60,595 nt of DNA from the NCBI GenBank assembly GCA_964541305.1, contig CAZIPE010000004.1:1-60595 (forward strand), given 5' to 3'. Position numbers and translations under genes: made by a program. Each line of letters begins with the position of its first letter. The first letter of the stretch is position 1. This document shows, one piece after another, positions 21,475 through 60,595 of the stretch. The stretch is from an uncultured Candidatus Saccharibacteria bacterium (lineage in GTDB: Bacteria > Patescibacteriota > Saccharimonadia > Saccharimonadales > UBA7683). Under the pieces are notes generated by a model, which had not been told where the DNA came from, searched no databases, and worked only from the letters and a program-made list of their open reading frames with translations.

Positions 21475-21620
21475 TTTTGTGACTTTCTATAATTTAAGGT
21501 TGTCTAACACAGGTTTCATAATAGCAAACTGTGTTGGTTGTTGATAAATATACTACGCTAATCTTGAAATATAAGCTTAATCGGTATATAATAGCGAGGT
21601 TATATGATAAAACAAAAACT

Positions 21621-23701: not shown

Positions 23702-23735
23702 ATACTTTACTCGTGTTAAGTGTTAGAATTTTAGA

Positions 23736-25808: not shown

Positions 25809-25820
25809 GGTAGCCTGATT

Positions 25821-27284: not shown

Positions 27285-27312
27285 TTAACACTATTATATA
27301 CTAGGTTAAGTA

Positions 27313-41573: not shown

Positions 41574-41705
41574 TTATCCACACAAGATACGGTAGTTTCC
41601 ACAGGACTTCATCTGGAAACCCAATACTGTGGATAAGTGTGGTTCTTCGGTGTTTTTTTATCTGTAAGTATGGGGTTGTGGAAAAGTAGTGAACTTTTGT
41701 ATAGT
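41574..41705. promoter_or_regulatory. DnaA-box cluster and candidate dnaA promoter (possible oriC half)
   Basis: Perfect TTATCCACA at 41574..41582 and its inverted copy TGTGGATAA at 41628..41636. Near-consensus boxes lie at 41595..41603 (GTTTCCACA) and 41677..41685 (TGTGGAAAA). A TATAGT -10 candidate sits at 41700..41705. Confidence 0.55.
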
Positions 41706-41737
41706 TGAATGTAGTCACAAATGTGAGAGGGAACACA

Positions 41738-43060: not shown

Positions 43061-43321
43061 AAATTGTGTTCAAACCCAGGAAAACGGACGGAAAAAAATG
43101 GGGCAAACTCGCTCTTATACACAGCTACTCACATTTTTGTGTTCAATAAAAAAGCTATCCACTCTTTCTTGCAAAGCTTTGCCGCGACTTACGCACACAA
43201 AAAATATCGCTTCCTACCCCTGTGTATGCAGCGCCTTTTCCACCCTATCCACACCACCTACTATTACTACTATTTATATAAATAATACTAATAACAATAA
43301 GCAACCAATAAGGAGTATCTA
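43061..43321. promoter_or_regulatory. dnaA-dnaN intergenic region with degenerate DnaA boxes and an AT-rich stretch (candidate oriC/DUE)
   Basis: TTATACACA at 43115..43123, CTATCCACT at 43155..43163 and CTATCCACA at 43245..43253. About 45 nt of almost pure A/T with short TAC/TAT repeats follows (43259..43305). An AAGGAG SD at 43310..43315 precedes dnaN. Confidence 0.45.
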
Positions 43322-44419
43322 GTGAACATTCAATTAACCCAGCCTAATTTGCAAAAAGCACTCAGCACCATGTCACGTGTAGCTAGCAGCAAAACTGCCC
43401 TACCGATTCTCTCCAACGTACTTATTAAAACGACCGACGAAGGCATTGAATTCTCGGCTACCAATCTTGAGGTAGCCGTTACCCACAAAGCAAGTGGAAA
43501 AGTCACTAAACCCGGTCAACTCACCGTTCCGGCCCGTCTGTTACATGAATTCATTACCCAACTCCCCAAAGATACTACCGTTTCTTTGGCGTTTGAAAAG
43601 AACAAGCTAGCCATAAAAGCTGGTACCTATAGCTCACACATCCAAGCGACTGCAGTTGACGACTTCCCCGCCCTTCCTGAAGTTCCCACAAAAAACAGTA
43701 TCGACGTAAATGCTCAGCTCCTTCAGGAGGCACTCACAAAAACAATCCTTGCCTCATCCCACGACGAGACCCGTCCGATTCTGACTGGTGTATATATCCA
43801 CACCTTCAAAGACCAGCTCTATTTTACCGCTACAGACGGCTATCGATTGGCAGAAATGAAGGTCGGCCCATGTTCGAGTACTATCGAGTGTGTGGTGCCC
43901 TTACAGGCGCTTCAGGACGTACTTAAAATTGCTCAAGACGCCGATAGTGAAACCTGCCAATTATTTTTCAGTGATGGCCAGTTCGCCATAAAGACGGGCG
44001 ATACTCAGCTGATGAGTCGACTTGTTGAAGGACAGTACCCCGAATATCGAAAGCTTATTCCTGAGAACAGTGAGATATCGTGTGAGGTAAGTCGAGAAGA
44101 ACTACAGACGGCCGCAAAACTAGCAGGGCTGTTTTCTCGAGAGAGTGGCGGTAGCATTACTCTCACCGCCTCCGGAGAGGATCAAAAATTTACTGTAGCT
44201 TCTGTTGCTTCTCAGGTTGGAGACAACAGTTCACATATTGATGCGAAAGTTACCGGTAGTGGCGATGTAGTGGTGAATGTCCGCTACCTTAATGATGCGC
44301 TCAGCTGTTTTGGGAGCAAACTCATCACCTTCCGGTTTGGTGGCTCGCTTGCCCCGTGTGTATTAACAGCAAAAGAAGAACCTAACTACCAACACATAGT
44401 TATGCCGCTTAAAAGCTAA
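43322..44419 (+). CDS. dnaN: DNA polymerase III beta sliding clamp
   Basis: GTG start behind AAGGAG. Three-domain clamp pattern (LSNVLIKT..., ATDGYRLA..., MPLK end). Confidence 0.95.
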   Translation: MNIQLTQPNLQKALSTMSRVASSKTALPILSNVLIKTTDEGIEFSATNLEVAVTHKASGKVTKPGQLTVPARLLHEFITQLPKDTTVSLAFEKNKLAIKAGTYSSHIQATAVDDFPALPEVPTKNSIDVNAQLLQEALTKTILASSHDETRPILTGVYIHTFKDQLYFTATDGYRLAEMKVGPCSSTIECVVPLQALQDVLKIAQDADSETCQLFFSDGQFAIKTGDTQLMSRLVEGQYPEYRKLIPENSEISCEVSREELQTAAKLAGLFSRESGGSITLTASGEDQKFTVASVASQVGDNSSHIDAKVTGSGDVVVNVRYLNDALSCFGSKLITFRFGGSLAPCVLTAKEEPNYQHIVMPLKS

Positions 44420-45965
44420 TAAATTCTTCTGCAGTCCTTAGGTCGGTATCGACATATAGTTTAGTATTTTTGATACCGATGCTTTCCAGGTATTTTTGTG
44501 CCTCTATTTTTCGTCTGGTTATTTCTTGTTCCTTCTTTTGTTTGTCTTCATATAAGGGGTCATTTGGTCCTTTAGCAAGAGGATATAGGTAGATCACACC
44601 ATTAAATGCATCAAGATGGTATGTGCTTTTTGTGCAGGGAATAGCATCACTGATAACCCGAGCTTCTTTATTTGAATCAGAATTTATAAGAAAAACCATC
44701 CTACCCGGATCTATATTCTTTCCGGGAGTTTTTAGATAAGCACTCAACTTAATCTTATTGTTAGACAGTACTTGATATGTAGAGTAACTAAGTAGAGGGC
44801 TTTGAAATAAACTATATGCAGAATTATTCTCTATGTTTAATGCCCTCAGGCCAAGTGTTGGGTCGAGGTAAGAAAGAGTGTCACCGTTTAGCCACTGAGT
44901 ATCAAGATCGGTATTATCAAAATTAACCCCCCCTATTTGTTTTCCGTTGCCATCTAAGACGACCACTCGTTTATCGCTAGTTGATAATGCGACTAGGTTA
45001 TTATCAGGTGATAAGACTATCCTTGAGACAGAATAATTTGAGTCCTTCTTGAAGCTTTTCACTTTGTTAGTTGAAGGACTAAGATAGGTAACAGAATACT
45101 CTGCACTTGAATCCTTTTCATCTTCCCTATACTCTTCTAACGAGGGATCGAATACCTTGCCGCTATATGCAACGAGCGTGCCGTTACGGTAATCTGCTAG
45201 GCCTGTTTCGTATAGTTTAGTACCAGGAGACAAACCCAGTCTCTTACTAGTGGTTAGGTCACCACTGTAGTATCGTGTCTCACTTTTTGTGCTTACAATA
45301 AAGCTATCCTCCGTTTGATTAGAGAAGAAGCCAATTTTATTCAAATCCTCATAGGGTATGATCGGACTACTTTTTAAAACGAATAGCTTGTTCGTTTTTG
45401 GGTTAAGCGCAGCAAGTACATTACCATCACCCTCTCGATTATAGGTTGTTCCTAAAAAAAGCGACTGAGTCGACGCTAGTGCCTCGAAGTGGGCAACGGT
45501 GTTAGTTGGTTCGTCGGAGCTGTAAGGGAATCTGTTCGTAGGACTGTGCTTAGTAAAAGAACTTTTAGGCCCACTGTCTCCTAGCTTCATAGTGTATACG
45601 GTCTTATCTGATAAAACGCTTAGCTCATCGGTGTTATTAGCCAGTTTAACACCGGCCAACTGTTGACCAACAAAAGGCTTAACCTGTACTGAACTCATGA
45701 ATCGAGGCACTTTTACTTCTACGGTGTAGTTGCCCGTATTGTTCGATAGATTCAACAGGTAGGTGCCGCTTTTTAATGGTCTTCCTATACTGTAGTTCTC
45801 GAAAGAGCCCTTAAGGGGCTTGATTGTTGCCACCCACGACGTATTACTATCTATAACAATCCTGCCGTGACTGGCTACCCAAAAGAAAGTGCCTGCAACT
45901 ATTGCAACAACAAACAACAAAATGGCGTATCGACCAAACCTACTTTTCAGTGAAGACATTATCAT
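44409..45965 (-). CDS. N-terminally anchored, beta-rich extracytoplasmic protein; last gene of the T4SS-like operon
   Basis: A single N-terminal TM (YAILLFVVAIVAGTFFWVA), then ~480 aa rich in short beta-strand repeats (propeller-like). Its start overlaps the upstream stop (ATGA). Its 3' end overlaps dnaN by 11 nt. Confidence 0.5.
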   Translation of the reverse strand: MIMSSLKSRFGRYAILLFVVAIVAGTFFWVASHGRIVIDSNTSWVATIKPLKGSFENYSIGRPLKSGTYLLNLSNNTGNYTVEVKVPRFMSSVQVKPFVGQQLAGVKLANNTDELSVLSDKTVYTMKLGDSGPKSSFTKHSPTNRFPYSSDEPTNTVAHFEALASTQSLFLGTTYNREGDGNVLAALNPKTNKLFVLKSSPIIPYEDLNKIGFFSNQTEDSFIVSTKSETRYYSGDLTTSKRLGLSPGTKLYETGLADYRNGTLVAYSGKVFDPSLEEYREDEKDSSAEYSVTYLSPSTNKVKSFKKDSNYSVSRIVLSPDNNLVALSTSDKRVVVLDGNGKQIGGVNFDNTDLDTQWLNGDTLSYLDPTLGLRALNIENNSAYSLFQSPLLSYSTYQVLSNNKIKLSAYLKTPGKNIDPGRMVFLINSDSNKEARVISDAIPCTKSTYHLDAFNGVIYLYPLAKGPNDPLYEDKQKKEQEITRRKIEAQKYLESIGIKNTKLYVDTDLRTAEEFISF

Positions 45966-47428
45966 TCCGGTAGTCCACCATAGGCCTTGATAAGAACTGG
46001 CTGGACATTAAGAAATGCATATCCACTACACGCGGCACCACTACATCCTGGCCGATTGGTTGCGGGTGGTGGTTGCATGTCAAAATGGAGATGTGGGGCG
46101 GTACCACACGCCTTTTCACCCACCTGTCCGAGAGGTGTCGCTGCTTCAACAGACTGTCCTTTAGCTACCTTTATCGATCCGAGCTGCATGTGGGTGTAAT
46201 AGTATACATTACTGTCTGAACCAAGAATAACAACGCTAGAACCACAACTACTAGCCCTATCTCTAGACAATACAACAGTCCCCTCCTTAGCTGCTATTAC
46301 AACCGTCCCTACTGGCACATGTATATCCGCTGCATTATAGTCATGATGACAGTTTGCTTGACTAGAATAACACCATATTCCACCACCTACACCAGTTTTG
46401 ATGGCACCCTTCGTGGTTACTAGAGGAAATGTGAAGCCGTCAACTTCTGCGACACCACCCCCTCTACCACCCGGAGTCCCATCATCACAACCACTGCCCG
46501 AAGACGAATCACCACCCGTTTCTGTTTCTTTGTCAGGACTTGCTTCATTGCCAGAGCTATCACCAGAATTATCGTTTTCTACAGGCGCTCCTCCGCCGTA
46601 AACCAGCTTACTCGGATCCCTAGCTCCTGTGCGCTGTTCATATGCCTCAGTACCAATAATTGTTGATGCCCTATTACGATAGTTTGATTTCATTCCCCTT
46701 AAAAAACCCATCATTTTTTGGTAATAAGCTTCTTCGCCATCTATCTTATTTTGCTCTGCCCACCATCCATTGCCCGGGAATTGCGTGTAGTGCGTGTAGT
46801 TGTACAGTACTTTAGATGCGTCAGAATTTTTGTCGAGAAGAGCTTCAATAATTCGAGTGTACCTAGGCAACAACATGGTTCCACCAGTAGCCTTTATGCC
46901 GACATCAAAACTTGCATATGCCTGACGTCCGTCACCACCTCCATTAGCGTAGGGCATCGCTTCAGGATCGTCACGAAGAGCACTAGTATTAAAGAGGTTA
47001 AATACCGACCTGTTATTGATGTCGCCACCCTCACCCCAGGCGAAGGCGAGGAGTGCTGCGGCGTGTTCCTCGGTAACAACATCTTCTCTTGGTGCCCCCT
47101 TGAAATCTGCTATATACTTCAATACTTCAATGATATACTGCTCCATAATGTAGGGACCTTCAATCCCACTGTTCCAAGCAACGAAAGTCTCTCCCGCACT
47201 TGGGCTTCCGCCGGTTCCACCACCCGTAGCGCATTTCCCGTTTTCATCATCACCATTTGATCTATATGCTGGCCAACCACTCCTCAAATCCTTAAGGTCA
47301 CTATCTGATATGGCATTAATAACGCCAGTGTTAGTTGCCGACAGCACCAAGATGACAAGGGTATACAATAATCTATGCAGTGCCTTTTTAGAAGCGCACA
47401 TTCTAAAGAAGTGTGTAATCAATGACAT
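45962..47428 (-). CDS. Secreted two-domain protein with a C-terminal M23 (LytM-type) metallopeptidase
   Basis: Signal/anchor sequence, an unknown ~270-aa N-domain, a Gly/Ser/Asp linker, then M23 motifs HHDYNAADIH and APHLHFD. Confidence 0.8.
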   Translation of the reverse strand: MSLITHFFRMCASKKALHRLLYTLVILVLSATNTGVINAISDSDLKDLRSGWPAYRSNGDDENGKCATGGGTGGSPSAGETFVAWNSGIEGPYIMEQYIIEVLKYIADFKGAPREDVVTEEHAAALLAFAWGEGGDINNRSVFNLFNTSALRDDPEAMPYANGGGDGRQAYASFDVGIKATGGTMLLPRYTRIIEALLDKNSDASKVLYNYTHYTQFPGNGWWAEQNKIDGEEAYYQKMMGFLRGMKSNYRNRASTIIGTEAYEQRTGARDPSKLVYGGGAPVENDNSGDSSGNEASPDKETETGGDSSSGSGCDDGTPGGRGGGVAEVDGFTFPLVTTKGAIKTGVGGGIWCYSSQANCHHDYNAADIHVPVGTVVIAAKEGTVVLSRDRASSCGSSVVILGSDSNVYYYTHMQLGSIKVAKGQSVEAATPLGQVGEKACGTAPHLHFDMQPPPATNRPGCSGAACSGYAFLNVQPVLIKAYGGLPE

Positions 47429-50400
47429 TAGGGCACCCCGATATGAATGTGGTTACAACTATCCGTATGAAGACGAACCTGATTTATTGGGTTAATTGGA
47501 ATGTTTGAACAGTTCACTTCACCCATTGAAGACCCATCTGGTAATATGCCGGTTATCGCCTGCATAAACGGCCTGTCTGAGTCGCCACCAGTGGCCCTCC
47601 TGCCGTTTACAGTATTTATATCTGCAGCCCGTCCTTTGTAGTGAAGTGATCCCGAGGTATGACAGCCGTTTGTAATATACCCATACCCTACAGCGTAACT
47701 CTCACTTATTTTAAGCATTACCCCTAGTAGGGTTTCACTGATCGGCGTAGAAGAGCCTGCATTACACCTTGCTTCTATTGCAGCTGGTTTTCCTTGTGCT
47801 ATAGCCTCAATTCCAGCTCTTGCTAACGGGGTTGTAAAGGTTATGTTAGGGGTGTCAAGAATTTTTTGAGCAAGACTTTGCGCGTCTCCAGAAGGGAGCT
47901 CACCGTTAGACCCACCCGAATCACCACCCCCACCATCTGTACCAGAGGGGCTGGTGCTACTCACGTTTTGTAGGTCAATAAGTTGTCCAAGCGTTCCTTG
48001 ATCGGGATCCACTTTTTGTGCATCGTCACTTAACCCACCATCCTTTCGATAGAGGCGATACCGGAAAGCACCCTCTGTTTTCATTGCAGACTCACAATAT
48101 TTTCTTACTGTTCTACCATCACGGACTTTATTCAGACCGTACAGATATAGAGGTGTTTCGAAACAGACATTATATGCCTCGTGTAAATCTAACAATCGTC
48201 TACCTTGTTCTACCCATCTCGCATTCTCTCTTGGCCAGTACGACGGTTCCTGCATCTTGGCCAGCTCAGCTTCGCTCCAGCCCACACTAATGGTGCCATA
48301 GGCTCGTGGATTATTGTATTCATCACCACCAACTGCATATACCAATCCTGAACCCGAGCTTGTGGCTATAGCCATCCTGTTTTGTGCGTTTGCAATTGAG
48401 GCTAACGGATTTAATGATTTGAAAGCAAACTGTCGCGTCTTTTCCAGTAGACTGCTTGGTCCAGTGGGGAAAGAAACAGCAAACTGACTACCCGTAGAGT
48501 ATGGGTTATCTAAACTTGCAAGCCGATGCCAGAGTGATTTCTTCTGCAGTAGAGCTGTTCGCCGCTCTTTTGTTACTTGATCGAGACGACCCAGTTCTTG
48601 GACGCTTAATTCTCTGCCTCCGCCCTGTAAACCCTCTTGGTTGGATAGTAACTTAAATCCGGCATCTTGTTTTCCGATTAATCGACGCTGATCATCAGTT
48701 CCAGGCTGACTTGTTCCTTTGAGTTGTTCAAGAAAGATATTAAACGCGGCTGCAATACCAAACTGTGTGGCTACCTCAACAGATCCTTTTTTTACGAATG
48801 CCAACGAGAACCTCTTCAGAGATTCTTTAAAGGTTAATTTTACGGCAGTCTCAACTCCAACTTTTGCTCCCGTACTGGCTGCGGCACTTGTTCCTCCGCT
48901 TGGAATCGCAGCAGCGGCCTGGAGGGCTACTTCGCCTATAGCAAGTATGAGTTGCCCAGCATTACTGTTTAACGCCTTACATACCCGAGCAATGTATGCG
49001 TTAACAACATCCTGTACCGCGTCTCCAACCCCAGGGATCCAGCCTGCGACACCTTGTAGGGCTGTGATGCCAGTCGCCCCTTCGACAATAGCAACTATTG
49101 CCGCAAAGAACTTGTAAATAATAGTGTCGGTATCAACACGAGGGCTATCAGCGATATCAATATCTTCAGATTTATCACTTAGTGTTTCAACACCAACAGC
49201 ACGTTGATAAGCGTATGATTCTTCAAAACTCCCTTGACGCTTGACTTCGGCGTCAACCGCTTCAGCCGTAGTGTCGCCGTTTGCTGTTTGGTCTGCTGCA
49301 CTGGATAGTAGCGCGGCACCCCGCATCATCTCATCGGATTTATTTTTTGCAACAGATGGGAGCTGGGTCATATAGTCTTTTGCGCCACAATATAATGTTC
49401 CAACCAGTGCCGCGATACTTACCTTTCCCGCTATTTGTCGGATAGTAGATTGTCCAACAGATCTTGCCGATGCCTTGGCAGCAGCGCGCGTAACGTCATC
49501 AGTGCTGTCTAGTTCTTCAGCAAATTCCTTAGCGAATTTCTCGCCACCCTCCTCTACTGGTGGCAGGCTACTGTTCAGTTTTCTGGTTGTCATTCTCTCA
49601 TAGGCGCTAAGAATTGCATCTTTAAACGTCTTTATTTTCCGTGCTTTGTTTGCCCAGTAACTGAGCCTAATGTTAGCTGATTCCATAATAGCGTTGGCGG
49701 TCTTGGTGCGATAAAACCTACTTTCTTCGGCAAAAAGGCTTGATTCTTGCATGGCAAGGTCAAGCTCTTTTAGTAGTTTCTTGTCATTTTTATAGTTACC
49801 AACAAAATTCACTTTTGAACTTTGCGAGAGCTTAATTTCTTGCCCTCCAACAGTTATGCTAGTAATTCCCTGCTTGGGACCCCTTACCCACCGGTTTTTA
49901 ACGGTTCCAGTATTGAATGTTAGTGCATCGGCGTCACCCAGTGTCTTGAGTGATTTCTGTGCATCAAAACGGGACAGCCTATCAAGTACACTTCTTCTCC
50001 CAAGAGCATTTAGTCGTGCACCCCCAGTAGACTCCTCGACTGATTCTTGCAGTGCATACTGTGTCGATCTTTTATAGTTCGCTAGATGTAGTCTCGCGAA
50101 ATTATATGTCTGAAGTACTTGTGCAAGTTGTCTCACTCCGAGCCCACTACTCAAAAACATTATTAAGAAAATGAGCGCAATGATTGCTCCGCCACCACCA
50201 AGCCCACCAGCGGCTATCAGCACCTTCTTTTTAGTTGATGCCTTTTTGAATATACTACTTAGCTTTCCTATTTTCCCATCACCCCCGGACTTCAACAAGC
50301 TTGACTTCTCTGTACCAGAAGTACTTGACGTTATATCGCTACCGCTACTCTCAGCATTCAGCAAAGCATCACGGTCTTGGTCTCCTGTGTATCTAAAACC

Positions 50401-50544
50401 GTCACTGATTCCCGCATCAATTTGGTCGTCCAGAGCTTTGTTCTCTGGGCTATTGACCATTTTGTTAAATTCTTCCTCGTACTTGCTCTGAGCTGGGTTT
50501 CTATCCGGGTCGAAATCTATCTCATTATCAAGCTTTGTCTTCAT
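47428..50544 (-). CDS. 1038-aa membrane-anchored protein with a C-terminal LAS/M15-type (VanY/Hedgehog-fold) zinc peptidase domain
   Basis: TM at about aa 110-135 (GGGGAIIALIFLIMFL). A long helical/hydrophobic middle is followed by a poly-Gly/Ser linker. The C-terminal motifs are SLHYKGRAADI (H-x6-D) and NHIHIG (HxH). Confidence 0.65.
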   Translation of the reverse strand: MKTKLDNEIDFDPDRNPAQSKYEEEFNKMVNSPENKALDDQIDAGISDGFRYTGDQDRDALLNAESSGSDITSSTSGTEKSSLLKSGGDGKIGKLSSIFKKASTKKKVLIAAGGLGGGGAIIALIFLIMFLSSGLGVRQLAQVLQTYNFARLHLANYKRSTQYALQESVEESTGGARLNALGRRSVLDRLSRFDAQKSLKTLGDADALTFNTGTVKNRWVRGPKQGITSITVGGQEIKLSQSSKVNFVGNYKNDKKLLKELDLAMQESSLFAEESRFYRTKTANAIMESANIRLSYWANKARKIKTFKDAILSAYERMTTRKLNSSLPPVEEGGEKFAKEFAEELDSTDDVTRAAAKASARSVGQSTIRQIAGKVSIAALVGTLYCGAKDYMTQLPSVAKNKSDEMMRGAALLSSAADQTANGDTTAEAVDAEVKRQGSFEESYAYQRAVGVETLSDKSEDIDIADSPRVDTDTIIYKFFAAIVAIVEGATGITALQGVAGWIPGVGDAVQDVVNAYIARVCKALNSNAGQLILAIGEVALQAAAAIPSGGTSAAASTGAKVGVETAVKLTFKESLKRFSLAFVKKGSVEVATQFGIAAAFNIFLEQLKGTSQPGTDDQRRLIGKQDAGFKLLSNQEGLQGGGRELSVQELGRLDQVTKERRTALLQKKSLWHRLASLDNPYSTGSQFAVSFPTGPSSLLEKTRQFAFKSLNPLASIANAQNRMAIATSSGSGLVYAVGGDEYNNPRAYGTISVGWSEAELAKMQEPSYWPRENARWVEQGRRLLDLHEAYNVCFETPLYLYGLNKVRDGRTVRKYCESAMKTEGAFRYRLYRKDGGLSDDAQKVDPDQGTLGQLIDLQNVSSTSPSGTDGGGGDSGGSNGELPSGDAQSLAQKILDTPNITFTTPLARAGIEAIAQGKPAAIEARCNAGSSTPISETLLGVMLKISESYAVGYGYITNGCHTSGSLHYKGRAADINTVNGRRATGGDSDRPFMQAITGILPDGSSMGEVNCSNIPINPINQVRLHTDSCNHIHIGVP

Positions 50545-50546
50545 TC

Positions 50547-52424
50547 TCAGGATCCTTGGTTGGCAGCAATATTACCAACATTATTACCTTGAGTCATCAC
50601 CTGAAAAGCCTCTTGTGCACGCTCTGCTACCTCTTGCACCTTCTTAATTTCTTCTGGGTTGGTGGTGATAAGGCTCGTTTCGGTTGGGCTGGCAATAATC
50701 TGCATGTGAATGTGGTTTTGGCCTGCAAATAACAACCCTTGGCCAATTGGGAATTGGCTGAGTCGTTTGGTTTCCTCGCTCGTAAGCTTAAACACCGAAG
50801 AGAGTACATCAACCGCCGAGGTCGACTGTTTGAGAAGAATTTGCATAGAGGAGTTAGAGACAATTGCACGGCCAACAGGACTGCTCATCATATCTTCTAC
50901 ATCCTGACTGATAGTGGTAAGTCCCAGGTAGTATTTGCGGGCGCGTTTAGCCACCGAGAACATGAAATTGGCGGAGTCGGGGTACTTCAAAAGTTGCCAG
51001 GCCTCATCAATGATTAAATTACGTCGACGACGATCTGATTTTGTTCTGTTCCAAATGTGATTAAGCACAATATACATTGCTACGGGCCTTAATTCGTCTT
51101 CAAGATCACGGATATTGAAGACCACCATGCTGTTGTTAATCTCAACATTACTTTGTTGCGAGAATATGCCCGCAAAGGTACCAGTAGTATATTTTCTGAG
51201 CCGTTGGGCCATGCTTGGGCCAGTACCCTGCATGTGAAGCAGGGTCTCGTATAAGTCGCCGATAGTCGGAGGCGGAGTTTGGTGAGTAAGCGGGTCGCTG
51301 GTGATACCCGCCTTGGTATAGGTATCAATTAACGCCTGATCCAAATCAGCCTCTTCAACAGGGTTGAGCGCGCCCCCCATCATGAGTCGCATGAGACCAT
51401 GTAAGGTAATGAGTACCGACCGCAGGGCATTGGCAGACTCTTCTTTATCCGTAACTTGGGGTAGATCGAACGGATTTATACGAGTTGTTGAATCAAGACT
51501 CATGCGTATATAGCTTCCGCCAACCGCATCACACAGTCGCTCATATTCATTTTCGGGGTCAATAATAACAATTTCAGTTCCGAGCATCATCGAACGCACC
51601 GCCTCGAGTTTCACCGCGAATGATTTACCCGCACCAGATTTTGCAAAGACCACCATGTTAGCGTTCTCGAGAGTAAATCTATCAAACAGAACCAAACCAT
51701 TATTGTGCATATTAATACCGTAGAGTATGCCGTTTTCCTGCGTAAGATCGGCACTGGTGAACGGAAAGCTGGTGGCAAGAGCACCGGTGTTCATGTTGCG
51801 TCGTACCTGAAGTTGGTCGGTAAATTGTGGCACGGTCGAATTAAGCCCCTGCTCCATCTGTACAGTGGCTGGTTTTGAATAGACGAGCTGTTGACCAAGC
51901 ACGGTCTCAACTTTGTGTTGGATATATTCAAGCTCTTCTAGGCTCTGTGAATACAGAGTAATGTACAGACCAAAACGGAAAAACCGCTCTTCACCAATTT
52001 GTAAACTATCTCTTAGTGACTCGGCATCAATAATAGCTGCTTGTTTACCAGGGTCGCGCACCCGACCCTTCTCGGCATCTATCTGTAAGCCAGCTTCAAG
52101 TTGACTCACTTTTTTACGTAAATTTTCCAACACTACACGAGAAGCGACCGGGTAAATGAACATCGAAACATCCACCTCCTCATCCATATTAATGATTGAA
52201 GACAACCAACCTGTATAGAGTTGCCGTGGATATCCGTAGACGTAGTAAGCACGGGCGTAGCGAGTGCCTAGGCGATAATGACCAGATTCTATCTCTAAAC
52301 TACTTGGCGCAACAAAGTCGCGCATCTCGGAAATACCTTTGCGAAACGCCTCCTCGACTTCAATTTGCTCACGGACGCGTTGTTGTTGTGCCTGGGTAAG
52401 TGCGTTTGGCTTCTTTTTTGCCAT
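50547..52424 (-). CDS. virB4: VirB4/TrbE/PrgJ-type type IV secretion ATPase
   Basis: Walker A VFAKSGAGKSF, Walker B NLIIDEAWQLL, and the VirB4-type N-domain (YARAYYVYGYPRQLYTGWL). Confidence 0.9.
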   Translation of the reverse strand: MAKKKPNALTQAQQQRVREQIEVEEAFRKGISEMRDFVAPSSLEIESGHYRLGTRYARAYYVYGYPRQLYTGWLSSIINMDEEVDVSMFIYPVASRVVLENLRKKVSQLEAGLQIDAEKGRVRDPGKQAAIIDAESLRDSLQIGEERFFRFGLYITLYSQSLEELEYIQHKVETVLGQQLVYSKPATVQMEQGLNSTVPQFTDQLQVRRNMNTGALATSFPFTSADLTQENGILYGINMHNNGLVLFDRFTLENANMVVFAKSGAGKSFAVKLEAVRSMMLGTEIVIIDPENEYERLCDAVGGSYIRMSLDSTTRINPFDLPQVTDKEESANALRSVLITLHGLMRLMMGGALNPVEEADLDQALIDTYTKAGITSDPLTHQTPPPTIGDLYETLLHMQGTGPSMAQRLRKYTTGTFAGIFSQQSNVEINNSMVVFNIRDLEDELRPVAMYIVLNHIWNRTKSDRRRRNLIIDEAWQLLKYPDSANFMFSVAKRARKYYLGLTTISQDVEDMMSSPVGRAIVSNSSMQILLKQSTSAVDVLSSVFKLTSEETKRLSQFPIGQGLLFAGQNHIHMQIIASPTETSLITTNPEEIKKVQEVAERAQEAFQVMTQGNNVGNIAANQGS

Positions 52425-53278
52425 TATAGTACCCCACCATTCATTGTTGAACGCGGATTTTCACCTTGTCCCCTGGTGACCACCGGCACGGTTAGCTGAA
52501 CATTCTGCTTGAGAGTTTGCCGAGTAGCAGTGTCAGGGTTATAGGTGTTGTAGTAGAGTTCAATAAGTTCTTGGGTGTCTAGGGCCATAGACTGCACACC
52601 CATCTGTAGTAAGCCGCTCACCACACTTTGCACGCGGTTTTTGAGCTCTGTCTTAGCTTTTTCTAGACTCATTTCATCAATAGTCACCACACCCTTTTTA
52701 TTCCCAAACAACCCGCCAAATAACCCCTTACCTGCTTTCACGGCTTTGCCAGCATCTAACTCTGCAACATACGGTATAACAATATAAAACTCTTTGCTCA
52801 TGATGTTGGTTTGCTGGACAAGGTCGTCAATAAAGTAGATGTAATCTTCCATTAACATACCAAGGAGCATATTTTCCATTTCCATTCGCACCTTACCGAG
52901 TTTTTCAAGATATGGTTGCATATCTATCTTACGTGAGCGTACCAGAATCTGAATGTCAAAGTAGAGAGAGTTTAAGAACCCCATATACGCATATTCTACG
53001 GCATCTCTTTCTTGGGGGCTCATGAGGTCAAAGTTTATACTTCTTGCCATTACCACAGCGCGAAACGTACCATCTTTGAGGATGGCTATACCATCTCGAA
53101 TCGCTGCAATTTGAAGAGTGTTTTGGGTGCTGTTTTGGGTATTTTTTGCCCCCTTTTTGCCACCCTTTTGCGTGGCTACACGCTCCACTTTAGTGCCTGG
53201 TGCAGACTTTTTATTCGGGTCAGCCTGATAGTGTGGCTGTCGAGATTGGAGTTGTGTGGGGGGTTGATTTGGTTGCAT
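52424..53278 (-). CDS. T4SS-associated hypothetical protein (disordered Q/K-rich N-terminus; body resembles a VirB4 N-terminal-domain-like module without an ATPase)
   Basis: IAAIRDGIAILKDGTFRAVVMARSINFDLMSPQERDAVEYAYMGFLNSL resembles, from memory, the start of Gram-positive VirB4 N-domains. No Walker motifs. Its stop abuts the virB4 start. Confidence 0.45.
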   Translation of the reverse strand: MQPNQPPTQLQSRQPHYQADPNKKSAPGTKVERVATQKGGKKGAKNTQNSTQNTLQIAAIRDGIAILKDGTFRAVVMARSINFDLMSPQERDAVEYAYMGFLNSLYFDIQILVRSRKIDMQPYLEKLGKVRMEMENMLLGMLMEDYIYFIDDLVQQTNIMSKEFYIVIPYVAELDAGKAVKAGKGLFGGLFGNKKGVVTIDEMSLEKAKTELKNRVQSVVSGLLQMGVQSMALDTQELIELYYNTYNPDTATRQTLKQNVQLTVPVVTRGQGENPRSTMNGGVL

Positions 53279-53377: not shown

Positions 53378-54304
53378 TTAGTGTAGTTTTATCTCTATGG
53401 ACCCGTCGTCATTTTTGTGCGGAACGTCTGCTAAATCTGATTTTATTGGGTTACCCTCATTGTCTTCAGTACTTACACTAGGTGATTCATTGTCGGGCAC
53501 ATCATCATCTGCCGACGCAATAGGACTTGCTGGTGGCTGTGTAATTATAGGTGTAACTTGTGGTGCTGTGTCTTCGAGACGATGAACAGGAAGTGGTTGT
53601 GGATTAGGGTGACTTAATTCTAAGGGTTGATCTCTTTTCTGCGCTACATTTACTGCATGTTGTCGCATCGAGGTATCGGCAATGTTTAGCCGGGCATCAA
53701 ATTTTTGATTAATAGTGTTTCTTTCGTCATAGGGATCGCTCGGCTGCGTGTACACATCAATACTTGCTGGCTGACTTTGAGCTATGTCATGAACAGCTAT
53801 AAGCCTATCAGAATCTGTTGCATAATGTGCGAACTGTGGATTCTGCCAGTCGTAGGGCTGCTTGCTTGCCCAGCCGCGCGAGTCCATCATCAGCGAAAGT
53901 CCGCTCAATCTGCTTACTGCCTCATCACCACTGAAATCTTTTGTAAGATGCTTTTCGACCACTGGCGGTGCGGTAATCTTTACGCGCTCCTCGTACCCTT
54001 CTTGACCCCAAATTCGTACACGAGGCTTAAAGTAGTAGCCAATTGCCGAAGCTAAATATACCTCAACCGGCTGATCTTTCCGTTGATATAGACCAAGTAC
54101 TAAAAACATAAGAGTAAACGGTAGCCACAGAAGCGCAGATACAGGATGTACTTTTGTGAAGAAGAAATAGGTAAGATATCCAAATGCAAGTCCAACAATA
54201 GTAAAGATAAGTTGCTTCAAGCTTAAAAAGCCAACAATCTTGTCTTCTGCTTCTACATCCTGAGGTACTTTATGCGTTGCCATTTTATTTGAAAGATCTC
54301 CCAA
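53378..54304 (-). CDS. PrgI-family (VirB3-like) T4SS membrane protein with a long Pro/Asp-rich C-terminal tail
   Basis: HKVPQDVEAEDKIVGFLSLKQLIFTIVGLAFGY followed by two TM helices is the PrgI-family signature. The start may be at M8 (54283). Confidence 0.7.
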   Translation of the reverse strand: MGDLSNKMATHKVPQDVEAEDKIVGFLSLKQLIFTIVGLAFGYLTYFFFTKVHPVSALLWLPFTLMFLVLGLYQRKDQPVEVYLASAIGYYFKPRVRIWGQEGYEERVKITAPPVVEKHLTKDFSGDEAVSRLSGLSLMMDSRGWASKQPYDWQNPQFAHYATDSDRLIAVHDIAQSQPASIDVYTQPSDPYDERNTINQKFDARLNIADTSMRQHAVNVAQKRDQPLELSHPNPQPLPVHRLEDTAPQVTPIITQPPASPIASADDDVPDNESPSVSTEDNEGNPIKSDLADVPHKNDDGSIEIKLH

Positions 54305-57300: not shown

Positions 57301-57640
57301 AAAAACCGTAGAAGCTAGATGAACTATAATCAGATGCCGATATAGATGTTGGAATACCAAGCCACTCTAGCCCGCTTTGGGTGTCGCTAGTACCTTCAAT
57401 GCACGAACCGGCATTAGAGCCATCTGGGTCTTTAGTAAAACCACCCCTTATTGCGTCGTATAGCGCAATTTCTTTATTGCTAGGAGTCGCTGCAAGCGCA
57501 CTCTGCATGTAGAGTGGACTCACCAGGCTCAAGATGAGCGCAGTGAAGAATATTGCACAGAATAGTGATGGTACCCGTTTAATTTTTTTCAGTGATAATG
57601 TTCTAAATATCCACATAATGTTAATCAAATGTAATTTCAT
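54311..57640 (-). CDS. VirB6/TrbL/PrgH-like polytopic T4SS channel protein (1109 aa) with a Cys-rich ectodomain and a ~350-aa hydrophilic C-terminal tail
   Basis: Signal/anchor sequence, a ~450-aa Cys-containing extracytoplasmic domain, about 6-7 TM segments including VFAPIAFVLWALPGGEKWFQRWWKLF (TrbL-like), then a long polar tail. Confidence 0.6.
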   Translation of the reverse strand: MKLHLINIMWIFRTLSLKKIKRVPSLFCAIFFTALILSLVSPLYMQSALAATPSNKEIALYDAIRGGFTKDPDGSNAGSCIEGTSDTQSGLEWLGIPTSISASDYSSSSFYGFSGDKSFAVSAKTDINLGDGRDETLRCETVIKRYVESKYGTGNSGRIAFLNSFYDTTLRGGKYYLKDCISEGDIQCPGIDSAARLIARNKLRNDMAAYAAALNDGAEEWYIAYAKDILLTKFNQCWKWEWNDPANPEERDESNQYNEELWVPKDGRDDSNNVGFLVETLYGKDRPNYEDGVMNCDELKDAVLSNRLLDFNIDDEYDDLSDEEKYQNVLGMFLAEGTDKLLACVAANNPAMARIPMVDLMKIIAKWLVDGDTQIYYPPYNGQPEGYTTAEQTAAIKECLFNAYGEDLETALDEEAPPSTAEDDEENLDDDPGGEKCYDGGKTLFGLVPKNPIKWIVCGLSQLLADAIDRVNKGIESLLEFNPTEGDGQSALKEVWSGLLTTANILFIVAFLIVIISTALDLGIFSNYTVKKLLPRVIIALILANLSFSICANLISITNTLGGAAKEIILAPITSAGNAGGGIKVVGEGEAATIAFTDAINADGSGAFQTAVVAGLGTLVYLAIASGGAILLPVMAIVFVAAIVALTVLLLRRILIIMLIVFAPIAFVLWALPGGEKWFQRWWKLFIQMLLMYPMIMAAFASGIFVSWLITKTGPSTGLGLMTSAMAFVAIVLPYFLIPTLFKAAGGALGNITGMINDRSKGLIDRSKNYRDNSSQYGRRKKLKAAGKEQKGQQELFESLQGDGRRAQYRRHQAFGMKGIGSKNRQRSESVRASMLGQTEEAIHKQQVQGLAESVRGMDITQAKDKLSEVALNKDESGVAGAGNYSDAQRSAAIALMTQYKDVNGLEKVQKQMLKEGKAGKPNSLKTWNDAMGKNFSEMKAISPHLATDVTASDTDATMEAKYAQAFLGATEQNKASMKVEGWQKFNQVAPAASQASVGNVLSNPVLSGSMPSDAASYFNTSTEQATATLAGSTVGQTVLSAEAGNDKVTPWLNATGSPRTEHELRGAHAGLQAKINGLSPEKARTTAPKLQAAQKIIEDYATRNGITL

Positions 57641-58163
57641 TTAGTTTGAAAGACTTCACTATCTCCGGCGCGTATTTTGATAGCGTTGAATCGCGGTCGT
57701 AGGAAAAACGTATTTGCCATATGTATTTTCCGCCATCTACATAGTATTCATCGGTATTCCCACCTTCGGTCGAAGTTTTAAGTGCCTTTTTGTTGTCAAT
57801 TGTTACTCTAGAAACGATAGTGACTTTTGAAGTGGCAATTTCTTTTTCTAGTGTATCTAAGCCAACGGTTGACGACTTCTGGATAGCCTTAGTAATCTCG
57901 ACTTTATCTGCTGACTTAGGATCAGTACTCTGAAATACAGCACCACTTGCCTGTCGCTTACCCGAGAAAGTCGCAGGGTGCTTAAGAGAAAACTCTTCAG
58001 TCTTAAAGTCTAAGTACTTTGTTCTGTCCAATAGTCCAGGACCACCACCAATAGAGCTCACGATGCTCACTATAATAAATAATAGTACAATGCACCCAAC
58101 AACAATAAGTATTTTTTTTCTCATATTCCCCTGATTGGCCCCGAAGGTTGACGATGGATACAT
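57621..58163 (-). CDS. Bitopic membrane protein; first gene of the T4SS-like operon (VirB8/PrgL-topology candidate)
   Basis: Short N-terminus, one TM (ILIVVGCIVLLFIIVSIVSSI), then a ~135-aa alpha/beta ectodomain. The start may be ATG 58124. Confidence 0.5.
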   Translation of the reverse strand: MYPSSTFGANQGNMRKKILIVVGCIVLLFIIVSIVSSIGGGPGLLDRTKYLDFKTEEFSLKHPATFSGKRQASGAVFQSTDPKSADKVEITKAIQKSSTVGLDTLEKEIATSKVTIVSRVTIDNKKALKTSTEGGNTDEYYVDGGKYIWQIRFSYDRDSTLSKYAPEIVKSFKLNEITFD

Positions 58164-58330
58164 AAAACTAAAGAATCTCTCCTGTGTAGATAATGTTTAT
58201 ATAATACCAATAAGCATGAACATATTCTATAACGTAATTTATGAACTCGTTTATACCCAAAAAACAAAAAAACACCTTCGTTGCAATAAAGGCCTTGATT
58301 ATGATGTTAATTTGAGTGACTATATAAAAC

Positions 58331-58840
58331 GTGATGAATAAAAAACACGCGATACCCATACTAGTTATTGCGCTACCATTGCTTCTGATATTGTCAAATT
58401 TTATGGAGGTTCGTGCTGATCCGCAATTTACAGAAGTAACCTGTGCAGATGGCTTTGTGGCTCAGGTTGAAAAGGATGACCCTATACTTGACGCAGAAGA
58501 TTTTATTGCAGCATGTGGCAGTCATGGGTACAATGAATCTGACACCCCTCCCACTCCGCCTACCTCTAATACTATCGAAGAAACAGAAGATGTGGGGGGC
58601 ACTGGATCAAGCGAGCTTGACTCGTTGCTAAATAAAGTAATAAATGGGCTTTCGGCCCTTGTTGGTTTGGTTATAGTTATCAGCCTAATTGGCGCGGGTA
58701 TACAGTATATGACCGCTCGAGATAATGCTTCACAAGTCGCTGCCGCTAAAGGAAGAATAGTGATGACGATACTGGCATTTGTATTGTTCATGATGGGCTA
58801 TGCACTACTGCAGTGGTTAATTCCGGGTGGAGTCTTCTAG
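58331..58840 (+). CDS. VirB2/TrbC-like T4SS pilin paralogue 1
   Basis: Signal peptide, a two-Cys head (VTCADG...AACGSHG), a Pro/Thr linker, then a hydrophobic hairpin GAGIQYMTARDNASQVAAAKGRIVMTILAFVLF. Confidence 0.65.
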   Translation: MMNKKHAIPILVIALPLLLILSNFMEVRADPQFTEVTCADGFVAQVEKDDPILDAEDFIAACGSHGYNESDTPPTPPTSNTIEETEDVGGTGSSELDSLLNKVINGLSALVGLVIVISLIGAGIQYMTARDNASQVAAAKGRIVMTILAFVLFMMGYALLQWLIPGGVF

Positions 58841-58926
58841 TTACTTGTTCGATTGTATACAAAGCGGTATTATCGTGTAGAGGCGAATGATTCATGACGA
58901 GTAACTTATGAAAGCAAAAAACTAGC

Positions 58927-59361
58927 ATGATTAAAAAAATAAAAGCAGCTGCCATTAGTCTTGTGCTTGTCGCAGGTTTTTTTGCTGGTGGAGCGACGGC
59001 TTTCGCAAAATGTGAGCCAGGAAAGGGCAGCTTACCTCCCGCAGTTTTTGTCCCTTGGTATGAATATCTTGAGGGTGAAGATGTGGGTGGTAAATGTAAG
59101 CCCGTTCTCGGCGATGACTATGTAAAATCAGTCAGCCTTATTGGTCTTGCAGTCATAGGCACGCTCATGAGAATTTCCGGTATCCTTGCAACGGCGTATT
59201 TAATCTGGGGTGCAATCCAGTACATTACGAGTCAGGGTGATCAGAACGGAATTGCGAATGCTAAAAATACCATCTTGAATGCAATTGTCGGGCTTGTGAT
59301 AGTTCTGTTATCGATTGGTATAGTTCAGTTCGTCGGGAATCTTGCAAGGAGTTCGCCATGA
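58927..59361 (+). CDS. VirB2/TrbC-like T4SS pilin paralogue 2
   Basis: Signal peptide, a two-Cys head (AKCEPGKG...GGKCKPV), and the hairpin WGAIQYITSQGDQNGIANAKNTILNAIVGLVIV. Confidence 0.65.
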   Translation: MIKKIKAAAISLVLVAGFFAGGATAFAKCEPGKGSLPPAVFVPWYEYLEGEDVGGKCKPVLGDDYVKSVSLIGLAVIGTLMRISGILATAYLIWGAIQYITSQGDQNGIANAKNTILNAIVGLVIVLLSIGIVQFVGNLARSSP

Positions 59362-59636
59362 TTGAGTCAGCTAGTATAGTAATGAGTATTTTGGGCGGCT
59401 TGCCAAAAGTTGATTTTACCGCAACAGTTACCAACGTATTTCAGGTGGTGTTTGGCATAATTGGTATTCTTAGTGTTTTGTTTGTTGCCTTCGGAGGTTT
59501 TAAATATGTTATTTCAGCAGGTAATCCTGAAGGTATTCGACAGGCAAAAGACACGATCCTCTACGCATTAATTGGCTTGGCGATTGGTATATCTGCGAAT
59601 ATCATCATTGCCTTTACGCTTGGGCGGCTTGGATGA
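59358..59636 (+). CDS. VirB2/TrbC-like T4SS pilin paralogue 3 (minimal, no Cys head)
   Basis: The 92-aa protein has the hairpin FGGFKYVISAGNPEGIRQAKDTILYALIGLAIG. Its start overlaps the upstream stop. Confidence 0.6.
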   Translation: MIESASIVMSILGGLPKVDFTATVTNVFQVVFGIIGILSVLFVAFGGFKYVISAGNPEGIRQAKDTILYALIGLAIGISANIIIAFTLGRLG

Positions 59637-60016
59637 AAAAAGTTATTCTAAGTATTTTTGTAATGACTTCCCTTGTCTTTGCTGTGGCGGTGCCAGTTTC
59701 TGCTTACGACCCCTTTGAGGAGCCGTGTTCGGCTGGGGGCAGTAGTGATTTTTGCAAAAGTGCCACTCAACAAGCGAGCGAAGATCGCATCGTCGGACCA
59801 AACGGTATTTTGACGAAAATAACCCAGTTCGTAGTGTTTCTAGCGGGCGGTTTTGCGGTAATTATGGTTACACTGGGCGGTGCTAAATATACTTTTTCAG
59901 CAGGAGACCCAAACGCTATAAAGTCTGCCAAAGACACAATCCTCTACGCCCTCGTTGGCCTGGTCGTTGCAATATTCTCGCAGGCGATGGTTGTATTTGT
60001 GCTTTCAAAGCTATAA
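59633..60016 (+). CDS. VirB2/TrbC-like T4SS pilin paralogue 4
   Basis: Signal peptide, a two-Cys head (EPCSAGGSSDFCKS), and the hairpin LGGAKYTFSAGDPNAIKSAKDTILYALVGLVVA. Confidence 0.65.
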   Translation: MKKVILSIFVMTSLVFAVAVPVSAYDPFEEPCSAGGSSDFCKSATQQASEDRIVGPNGILTKITQFVVFLAGGFAVIMVTLGGAKYTFSAGDPNAIKSAKDTILYALVGLVVAIFSQAMVVFVLSKL

Positions 60017-60053
60017 AGTGAAACTAAATCATTAGCAGAAAGGTATAGATATT

Positions 60054-60595
60054 GTGAAGAAGTACATACAAAGTTTCATAGCAATAATGCTTATTACAAC
60101 TGGTCTCATTGGCTCATCATTGTTTACGGTTTCAGTATTTGCGCAAGCACCACCAACCACACCGCCACCAACCACAGGAACACCGGCCAGCTCAGCTTGT
60201 GATGGCATCAAGGCTGCGGGTGGGTCATGTGATACTGCTGCGGGTAACGAAGGATTTTATAATCTTATGAAAGTCGTTGTAAACACACTTAGCGTTGTGG
60301 TCGGTGCGGTGTGCGTAGTGATGATTATCGTTGGCGGCTTTCGTTATGTTATTTCGGCCGGTGATAGCAACGCATTAGGTGCTGCCAAGAACACCATTCT
60401 CTACGCCCTCGTTGGCCTGGTTATTGTATTGTTTGCTCAGGTGATTGTTCAATTTGTTTTTGTAAATGCCAACCAGAGCGCTACTCCCACTGGTGGTTCA
60501 TGTGATCCTGCTGATCCCGCCTGCGCCACACCGCCACCAACCACACCGCCACCAACCACACCGCCACCAACCACACCGCCACCAACCACACCGCC
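60054..60595 (+). CDS. VirB2/TrbC-like T4SS pilin paralogue 5 with Pro/Thr-repeat extensions; 3' end off the window (not in the supplied ORF track)
   Basis: Hand translation from GTG 60054 gives MKKYIQSFIAIMLITTG...FAQAPPTTPPPTTGTPASSACDGIKAAGGSCDT...VGGFRYVISAGDSNALGAAKNTILYALVGLVIV...GGSCDPADPACATPPPTTPPPTT... The frame is still open at the window end. Confidence 0.6.
   Translation, partial: MKKYIQSFIAIMLITTGLIGSSLFTVSVFAQAPPTTPPPTTGTPASSACDGIKAAGGSCDTAAGNEGFYNLMKVVVNTLSVVVGAVCVVMIIVGGFRYVISAGDSNALGAAKNTILYALVGLVIVLFAQVIVQFVFVNANQSATPTGGSCDPADPACATPPPTTPPPTTPPPTTPPPTTP
60526..60595 (+). repeat. Perfect 15-bp tandem repeat (ccacaccgccaccaa; encodes PPPTT), at least 4.6 copies, running off the window
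   Basis: Direct reading finds identical units at 60526, 60541, 60556 and 60571, and a partial unit at 60586. A related copy lies at about 60148..60176 in the same gene. Confidence 0.9.

Follow-up and report, generated by a model that had tools for sequence, protein, structure and literature searches.

Classical type IV secretion systems (T4SSs) encode one major pilin that forms a homopolymer, and the known conjugative pili are homopolymers. Why, then, does a stretch of DNA from a Saccharibacterium encode a row of different pilin-like proteins next to the genes of such a system? We analysed the whole 60,595-nt stretch (contig CAZIPE010000004.1; "the window" below), whose last 2.3 kb are taken up by a pilin array, p1 to p5. 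With a joint probability of roughly 55%, we consider that p1–p5 are the first five genes of a six-to-eight-member PF18895 operon of a T4SS whose classes co-assemble into a mixed structure, that the locus is a chromosomal, relaxase-less, monoderm-type (MPF-FATA-like) T4SS of a Saccharimonadia (TM7) bacterium, and that it is orthologous, by gene order and lengths, to the T4SS essential for the epibiotic growth of Southlakia epibionticum.

The array itself is a real observation: p1–p5 form a VirB2-like (PF18895) pilin array of a T4SS. Five plus-strand open reading frames (ORFs) lie in 58331–60595, and the fifth reaches the window end without a stop codon. The initial annotation had listed five consecutive plus-strand genes here, which the ORF calls confirm, and had reported overlapping stop and start codons in two of them. 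The overlaps are real, but there are two, involving three genes, with ATGA at 59358–59361 (p2/p3) and at 59633–59636 (p3/p4). In a MAFFT alignment, the five proteins share a C-terminal module of about 70 residues with invariant columns G, Y, A-K and I. The loop motif (K/R/Q)-Y-x-x-(S/A)-x-(G/D)-(D/N) of this module is present in all five copies, as first described, while the G-G expected before it is replaced by AG in p1 and by GA in p2. The full-length identity of the other copies to p1 is 16–29%.

The N-terminal parts are of two kinds. Four copies (p1, p2, p4 and p5) begin in the manner of a signal peptide, as judged by a heuristic of ours that looks for a positive N-terminal region, a hydrophobic core and small residues at -3/-1, and their heads contain exactly two cysteines each. 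The alignment bears out the original description of four unrelated Cys-pair heads and one headless copy, p3, which has no head, no cysteine and, by the heuristic, no signal peptide. The head of p1 covers 69 aa, and the protein ends, after its hairpin, in ...LQWLIPGGVF; the head of p2 reads C-x14-FVPWYEYL-x9-C and that of p4 YDPFEEPCSAGGSSDFC..., each followed by the hairpin. In p5 (its orthologue P0001 has 196 aa and is 80% identical) the order is putative signal peptide, APPTTPPPTT stretch, Cys-pair head, hairpin, second Cys pair and PPPTT repeats. The PPPTT-type repeats noted on both sides of this last copy are thus APPTTPPPTT before the head and a 15-nt tandem repeat after the hairpin. A 24-nt stretch thought to occur in both p4 and p5 is exact in p4, but its first base is mismatched in p5; by chance, no such 24-mer was expected (none in 100 shuffles).

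Do these proteins belong to the VirB2-type pilins? All five match Pfam PF18895 (T4SS_pilin) with 36.8–45.2 bits, against a gathering cut-off of 26.6. Matches to the TrbC/VirB2 family PF04956 (gathering score 27.9) stay below cut-off in p1 (25.5 bits, E 1.5e-5) and p5 (18.6 bits, E 0.0022), and p2–p4 have no PF04956 match in the Pfam scan. The VirB2/TrbC hairpin proposed at first therefore passed the hidden Markov model (HMM) test, with PF18895 above cut-off in five of five copies and PF04956 sub-threshold in two. Many array homologues also carry a precomputed PF04956 match. Judged from sequence, the window pilins are related to the PF04956 family but cannot be filed there. NCBIfam NF045849 (Mbov_0395 family pilin-like conjugal transfer protein) is matched by five of five proteins over nearly the entire 80-residue model, at 24.3–33.2 bits (E 3e-8 to 1.9e-5; cut-off 40 bits).

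AlphaFold2, run on p4 with 123 family members, gave a model that contains a signal-peptide helix, a head predicted as coil (predicted local distance difference test score, pLDDT, about 50–65) and two helices at residues 57–88 and 93–126 (pLDDT 85–92). Together with the conserved loop motif, this gives the two-helix hairpin with a short charged loop that is expected of a VirB2-type pilin. The five-pilin profile against PDB sequences returned a chance hit at E 1.3 alone. In a Foldseek search, the conjugation pilin 8dfu of Aeropyrum pernix ranked second (E 2.1, TM 0.53), among unrelated hairpins and without significance. The homologues bearing a source name come from Saccharimonadales/Saccharibacteria, and none of 72,556 plasmids matched the p5 hairpin in a tblastn search, which at that sensitivity showed no tie to known conjugative plasmids.

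The same evidence bears on the account that the array has nothing to do with the T4SS and encodes effectors secreted via Sec or ordinary small membrane proteins, as in the earlier reading of the "Sec-secreted array" of TM7x. It could draw on the signal peptides of four of five copies (heuristic) and on TM7x itself, where three of six array genes rise in stable symbiosis and were called putative effectors. However, two long hydrophobic helices stand at the end of each copy, each scores above the PF18895 cut-off, and the linkage to VirB6, VirB3 and VirB4 genes is tight and conserved (it recurs in L003, L012, L014, L016 and L019). We regard this account as highly improbable.

Are the copies, then, variants of one pilin or different proteins? 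In a comparison of eleven loci, the class 1 protein, encoded by the first gene, has the tail LQ(W/F)L(I/V)PGG(V/I)(F/L/W) in 11 of 11 loci, and its head varies in length between about 25 and about 200 residues and has 0–6 cysteines, always in even number. The class 2 protein, from the second gene, carries the head C...F(L/V)xFPxWYxYL...C in all eleven; in the heads of 23 homologues, no change occurs at the W, Y and L and hardly any at the first cysteine. Class 3 is always the third gene, 86–104 aa long, without head, cysteine or signal peptide, and a database search with p3 gave headless proteins for the most part, 16 of the 19 best matches having 86–101 aa. Class 4 has a short Cys-pair head, and the later genes are similar to each other, p5–p7(8) resembling one another within a genome. 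For p1–p3, hairpin identity across genomes is 0.45 within a class, versus 0.26–0.42 to other classes. Over the Saccharimonadales loci that we examined, the copies are old, distinct classes whose order is fixed, and probably not interchangeable variants. Recent tandem amplification is ruled out for p1–p4 by this class conservation and may have occurred in p5–p7(8), which are alike within a genome. As a side observation, the p1-class pilins of L012 (4682–5533) and L016 (4670–5533) have Cys-rich heads, about 200 aa long, before the hairpin, and precomputed Pfam annotation missed both proteins as pilins.

Selection was compared with L003, the closest relative in which the region is assembled and whose p5 is 80% identical. 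The ratios of nonsynonymous to synonymous substitution rates (dN/dS) are rough, because dS is saturated for several segments; for the hairpins of p2–p5 they are 0.01–0.10 (p2 0.03, p3 0.01), and for the p1 hairpin dS is saturated and the ratio not computable, with a dN of 0.157. Hairpin identity is 80% for p1 and 99% for p3. Wherever a ratio could be obtained, it shows the hairpins to be under purifying selection. Amino-acid identity of the heads to their L003 orthologues is 94% for p4, 78% for p5, 63% for p2 and 34% for p1, whose head also differs by insertions and in Cys count. Head dN/dS is 0.05–0.32, and no region exceeds 0.64. The heads, called hypervariable by the initial annotation, are thus unrelated between paralogues, but between orthologues only the p1 head evolves fast. 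The decay of spare copies that it had raised is not seen in any of the five, as the hairpin values above indicate. Decaying duplicates were ruled out, all reading frames being intact and the hairpins conserved.

The closest published counterpart is the T4SS of S. epibionticum, which was reported as essential by Wang 2023 (PMC10633639). Its six pilin genes, SEML1_0014–0019 (399, 558, 312, 381, 384 and 417 nt), are each essential (Table S1, PMC10633639); they follow the VirB6-like SEML1_0013 and precede an Hsp20 gene on the opposite strand (PMC10633639), and an unlinked seventh pilin, SEML1_0024, is non-essential (Wang 2023 Table S1, PMC10633639). The window locus resembles that of strain ML1 in having VirB4, TraC-like, PrgI and VirB6-like genes on one strand, tandem PF18895 genes on the other and Hsp20 (here via L003). 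In both, the third pilin gene is the shortest (312 nt there), the locus lies by the chromosome start, and there is no relaxase or coupling protein. The two differ in copy number (six there, at least five here and seven in L003) and in the VirB6-like genes, two there and one here.

The published interpretation of such arrays, by analogy with the VirB2 paralogues of Bartonella and Anaplasma (PMC12102498), would make the copies interchangeable variant pilins, used one at a time or in a changing subset for antigenic or host-range variation. Heads wholly different between paralogues would suit such a use. So would the speed at which the p1 head and the VirB6-like gene beside it diverge between close relatives, a copy number that varies from 6 to 8, and the likeness of p5–p7 within a genome, with identical DNA stretches allowing recombination. 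Yet classes and order are conserved across distant genomes, and the p4, p5 and p2 heads are conserved between orthologues, with the low dN/dS given above. Antigenically variable VirB2 copies would be expected to be recent, interchangeable and under diversifying selection in their exposed parts, whereas here the classes are conserved and all dN/dS values are below 1. Moreover, six of six array copies are essential in S. epibionticum, and the repeat and promoter scans showed no silent cassettes, invertible promoter or switching-type repeats. We judge this interpretation quite improbable.

Fusion proteins also bear on how the classes relate to one another. Five diverse proteins of 225–251 aa (P0160, P0171, P0176, P0181 and P0183/P0184) are p2-p3 fusions, where a single chain runs from a head and hairpin of class p2 into a p3-like hairpin that lacks a head. 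With class-specific HMMs, the first module of every p2-p3 fusion was assigned to p2 and the second to p3, while P0214 was assigned as p2-p3-p4/5 and P0237 as p3-p4. In all fusions the module order follows the gene order. For example, the fusion in L019 (6001–6678) occupies array positions 2 and 3, beside a VirB6-like gene. Fusion of neighbouring classes in gene order is a classical sign of physical association, so neighbouring classes probably contact each other, as far as sequences can tell. For copies used as alternatives, a one-chain fusion of neighbours would be senseless. The initial annotation had offered a heteropolymeric filament or a switchable or antigenic one; the former fits better, and the latter is weakened by the conserved order, the essentiality of each S. 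epibionticum copy and the fusions. Co-assembly is favoured over switching because of the fixed class order, the individual essentiality, the gene-order fusions and the purifying selection. A mixed alignment of fusions with p2- and p3-class proteins was dropped for modelling, as it placed p2 hairpins on the second hairpin of the fusions.

Longer chains exist as well. An exhaustive profile search over 1.84 billion representatives found 71,011 family members at E <=1e-3 and 20,680 at E <=1e-10, and about 64 of the 150 best-scoring members hold 2–11 hairpin modules per chain. P0203 (L020 1777–3435), P0207 and P0219 are single chains with 6, 8 and 11 hairpin modules. The six modules of P0203 come with one signal peptide and one Cys head, and the gene lies inside an array of single pilins.

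Such chains suggest a closed assembly with a fixed number of subunits, and with this a mixed ring or channel embedded in the membrane as part of the T4SS, without an extracellular filament. Parallels are rings of helical-hairpin subunits and the pilus-independent role of VirB2 in substrate transfer. The fixed class order and the essentiality of each copy would be equally at home in a ring, and monoderm T4SSs are generally without pili (PMC12102498). A weak likeness to ATP synthase subunit c shows in a Pfam match of p1 (E 0.21), in a hit from the PDB (E 2.3) and in the ECOD label of SEML1_0018 (Wang 2023 Table S2), but it is not significant. The family is homologous to TrbC/VirB2 pilins, and the Cys-pair heads, the Pro/Thr-rich spacers and the Cys-rich p1 domains of about 200 aa in L012 and L016 look surface-exposed, away from the membrane. 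A ring without a filament is therefore, in our estimate, unlikely, although less so than a switching set.

How might co-assembly of the classes proceed? Four of the five copies would be exported via Sec and their signal peptides cleaved. All five would insert in the membrane as the modelled two-helix hairpin, presumably with both ends outside and the conserved loop (K/R)Y..S.GD...AK..I on the cytoplasmic side; we infer this topology from the p2-p3 fusions and the positive loop. In a p2-p3 fusion, the p2 C-terminus and the p3 N-terminus would therefore be on the same membrane side, and p3 would for this reason need no signal peptide, so that the headless copy could insert without one. The Cys-pair heads probably form disulfide-stabilised surface loops. 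Finally, the VirB4/VirB6-like machine encoded on the opposite strand would build the different classes into one mixed structure, most likely an extracellular or wall-spanning conduit or pilus reaching the host cell.

Several points weigh against co-assembly into such a structure. None of the five proteins reaches the PF04956 cut-off, Foldseek of the p4 model against the PDB gave no hit at E <=0.001 (best E 1.8), and a helical hairpin, as modelled here, is not diagnostic of a pilin. The classes p4–p6 are poorly separated by hairpin alone (identity 0.47–0.61 within versus 0.46–0.52 between classes), and the selection comparison involves one relative, L003, with dS saturated in several segments. 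The AlphaFold2 model of the p2-p3 fusion P0160 is modest (pLDDT 71; predicted template modelling score, pTM, 0.44), with four long helices, and fusions, which show association, do not tell a filament from a ring or channel. The essentiality of each small gene in transposon sequencing could in part reflect polar effects within the operon. No filament or other assembly has been seen in any Patescibacterium, and a 2025 review calls the pilus an 'intriguing possibility' (PMC12857230).

The multi-pilin set, put forward as a novelty by the initial annotation, is not new, as arrays in Saccharibacteria/Patescibacteria T4SSs were published in 2023–2025 (PMC10633639, PMC12102498). Quiñonero-Coronel 2025 reported 441 arrays of 2–11 VirB2-like genes in 383 Patescibacteria assemblies (PMC12102498), abundant in Saccharimonadia and with a mean identity of 25% between copies (PMC12102498), and suggested antigenic variation or host-strain adaptation from the Bartonella/Anaplasma analogy (PMC12102498). 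An array was defined there as at least two PF18895/PF04956 genes, in tandem or one gene apart, near virB4 and with low identity (PMC12102498). The window array has five such genes in tandem, about 6 kb from virB4, with the low identities to p1 given above, and it agrees with the published arrays in Pfam models, arrangement and identity level. It is a further example of the published kind, and the comparative points are the addition: class order, headless class and fusions were not found in the two papers describing these arrays (PMC10633639, PMC12102498). Unlike the account in PMC12102498, our data on conserved classes, the headless class and fusions favour co-assembly over antigenic variation.

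Other systems share single aspects. With the TrbC/VirB2 conjugative pilins of F, RP4 and the Ti plasmid, the window pilins have in common a small size, a putative signal peptide in four of the five copies, two hydrophobic helices, a short charged loop, the company of VirB3, VirB4 and VirB6 homologues and a sub-threshold PF04956 match. They differ from these diderm systems by six to eight divergent classes with extra heads in a monoderm, without VirB5 or an outer-membrane core. The Mbov_0395 family, known in one copy per element, contains a hairpin protein of a monoderm T4SS from integrative and conjugative elements of Mycoplasma, and our proteins match nearly its whole model; at 24–33 bits against a cut-off of 40 they are relatives, not members. 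Thus a VirB2-like hairpin component may, from sequence comparison, be native to monoderm T4SSs rather than borrowed from diderms, whereas, according to a published suggestion, Patescibacteria may have recruited it from the T4SSs of diderms. The Bartonella/Anaplasma clusters are likewise tandem VirB2-like genes in T4SSs for host interaction rather than conjugation (PMC12102498). Unlike these clusters, thought to serve antigenic variation, the classes here are ancient, ordered and under purifying selection, and each is essential in S. epibionticum.

The positions of the array and of the neighbouring T4SS genes are listed in Table 1.

Table 1. Pilin array and adjoining features in the 60,595-nt window.
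Feature	Position	Strand	Description
p1	58331 (GTG)/58334 (ATG)-58840	+	VirB2-like pilin class 1, 168-169 aa; PF18895 36.8 bits, PF04956 25.5 bits
p2	58927..59361	+	VirB2-like pilin class 2, 144 aa; PF18895 38.2 bits
p3	59358..59636	+	headless VirB2-like hairpin class 3, 92 aa; PF18895 44.5 bits
p4	59633..60016	+	VirB2-like pilin class 4, 127 aa; PF18895 40.3 bits
p5	60054..60595	+	VirB2-like pilin class 5, at least 180 aa, cut by window end; PF18895 45.2 bits
24-nt stretch common to p4 and p5	59941..59964 (exact); 60398-60421 (23/24 bases)	+	L002 ends inside the second copy
Perfect 15-nt tandem repeat, 4.7 copies	60526..60595		encodes PPPTT; Tandem Repeats Finder
A+T-rich divergent intergenic region	58164..58330		between T4SS machinery operon (-) and pilin operon (+); sequence
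180-aa protein, N-terminal membrane anchor	57621..58163	-	no Pfam match; between VirB6-like gene and pilins
VirB6-like polytopic membrane protein (TrbL_3), 1109 aa	54311..57640	-	precomputed PF19590 on identical Logan gene
PrgI family (VirB3-like) protein	53378..54304	-	PF12666 54.4 bits
TraC-like/TrsD-like protein	52424..53278	-	precomputed PF26593
VirB4-type ATPase	50547..52424	-	PF19044 TraG P-loop 105 bits, AAA_10, DUF87
1038-aa protein, same operon	47428..50544	-	no Pfam or NCBIfam match
M23 peptidase	45962..47428	-	PF01551 60.8 bits
dnaA and dnaN	41705..44419	+	Pfam scan

The locus agrees with the patescibacterial T4SSs in its VirB4, PrgI/VirB3, TrsD/TraC-like and VirB6-like genes, in having no relaxase or coupling protein nearby and in its closeness to dnaA. 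No relaxase or VirD4-like coupling protein turned up in the 60 kb examined, where 47 ORFs with 120 aa or more were run against Pfam. The TraC-like protein also matches the NCBIfam TrsD and CD1110 families (the latter by its N-terminal part), both below their cut-offs, and the L003 orthologue of the 1038-aa protein carries a VanY peptidase match. The M23 peptidase is a candidate cell-wall hydrolase of the T4SS, with a putative VirB1 role. Beyond it lie a minus-strand gene for a 518-aa protein and then dnaN and dnaA. The pilin array is about 15 kb from dnaA-dnaN, and the T4SS locus is near the replication origin region. Counterparts of the 180-aa protein stand at the equivalent position in L003 (203 aa) and L014 (177 aa). 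The intergenic region is the presumed promoter region, although a promoter and terminator scan of 57500–60595 gave weak consensus matches alone, with nothing interpretable. The Rfam scan had a tRNA-Asn as its sole match and no RNA element within the pilin array.

Which part of the locus may meet the host? In a sliding DNA comparison with L003, 54287–59200 is 25–72% identical; this block covers the VirB6-like gene, the 180-aa protein, the intergenic region, p1 and the p2 head. Its flanks are more similar, at 71–97% for the VirB4, TraC-like and PrgI genes and 65–92% for the rest of the array. The VirB6-like protein, which has a large predicted N-terminal extracellular part, is 35% identical overall, its transmembrane core being well conserved and its N-terminal 440 residues poorly. 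Such a block points either to alleles replaced through recombination or to a module for host contact that diversifies fast. The part that evolves fast, made up of the p1 head together with the VirB6-like gene, is the best candidate for host-specific contact.

As for the length of the array, seven PF18895 genes stand in tandem in L003, with HSP20 behind them on the other strand, L015 has eight, and seven more distant Saccharimonadales loci (L005, L006, L008, L009, L011, L012 and L016) have six each. Because the closest relative has seven copies before HSP20, the window array is likely longer than the window and probably continues past its end. Two independent public assemblies, L001 and L002, are 100% identical to the window over 10.8 kb; L001 ends at 60555, inside the PPPTT repeat, and L002 at 60414, inside the stretch shared by p4 and p5. 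The initial count of at least five copies is thus correct and conservative, given the seven copies of L003 and identical assemblies that break in array repeats. Pilin arrays are probably under-assembled, and so under-counted, in short-read metagenomes, since both assemblies end inside array-internal repeats. In L005 (3788–4204) and L011 (1088–1507), a further pilin, free of cysteines and unlinked to the array, is encoded on the other strand at a distance of a few kb, which parallels the non-essential SEML1_0024 of S. epibionticum; no such pilin was found elsewhere in the window.

The remainder of the window holds, in 1–39480, a large surface-polysaccharide region with rmlABCD-like genes, many glycosyltransferases, a Wzm/Wzt ABC exporter, an O-antigen-ligase-like protein and GlmS and GlmM-like genes. 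Blocks of low G+C content lie at 14–18 kb and 24–37 kb (0.37–0.40 versus about 0.44). Pfam gave nothing at E <=1e-4 for five consecutive long ORFs in 21531–28617 (222, 501, 690, 487 and 434 aa), and a gene of the 23S rRNA-intervening sequence protein family (PF05635, 120 bits) stands amid the polysaccharide genes at 5365–5748. A large serine recombinase gene at 46–1554 (Resolvase, Recombinase and Zn-ribbon domains) overlaps with its 3' end the opposite-strand tRNA-Asn; an integrated element, truncated where the window begins, may have its edge here.

What do these results mean for the Saccharibacteria? Their T4SS is the sole monoderm T4SS known to have pilin-like genes, and it is essential for the epibiotic life of S. 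epibionticum, the one Saccharibacterium tested. A 2024 perspective described its role as 'completely unknown' (PMC11665869). The comparative points turn the published idea of antigenic variation into a testable alternative, the co-assembly of distinct subunits, and direct the search for host specificity to p1 and the VirB6-like ectodomain. A tentative and rather doubtful extension is that the six to eight classes follow one another as subunits in a single mixed assembly of fixed order (filament, stalk or ring). Gene order would then be neighbour order, as the colinear p2-p3, p3-p4 and p2-p3-p4/5 fusions and the chains of 6–11 hairpins suggest. If this were true, Saccharibacteria would have a T4SS conduit made of many different VirB2-like subunits, with the p1 head and the VirB6-like ectodomain as an exchangeable host-recognition module.

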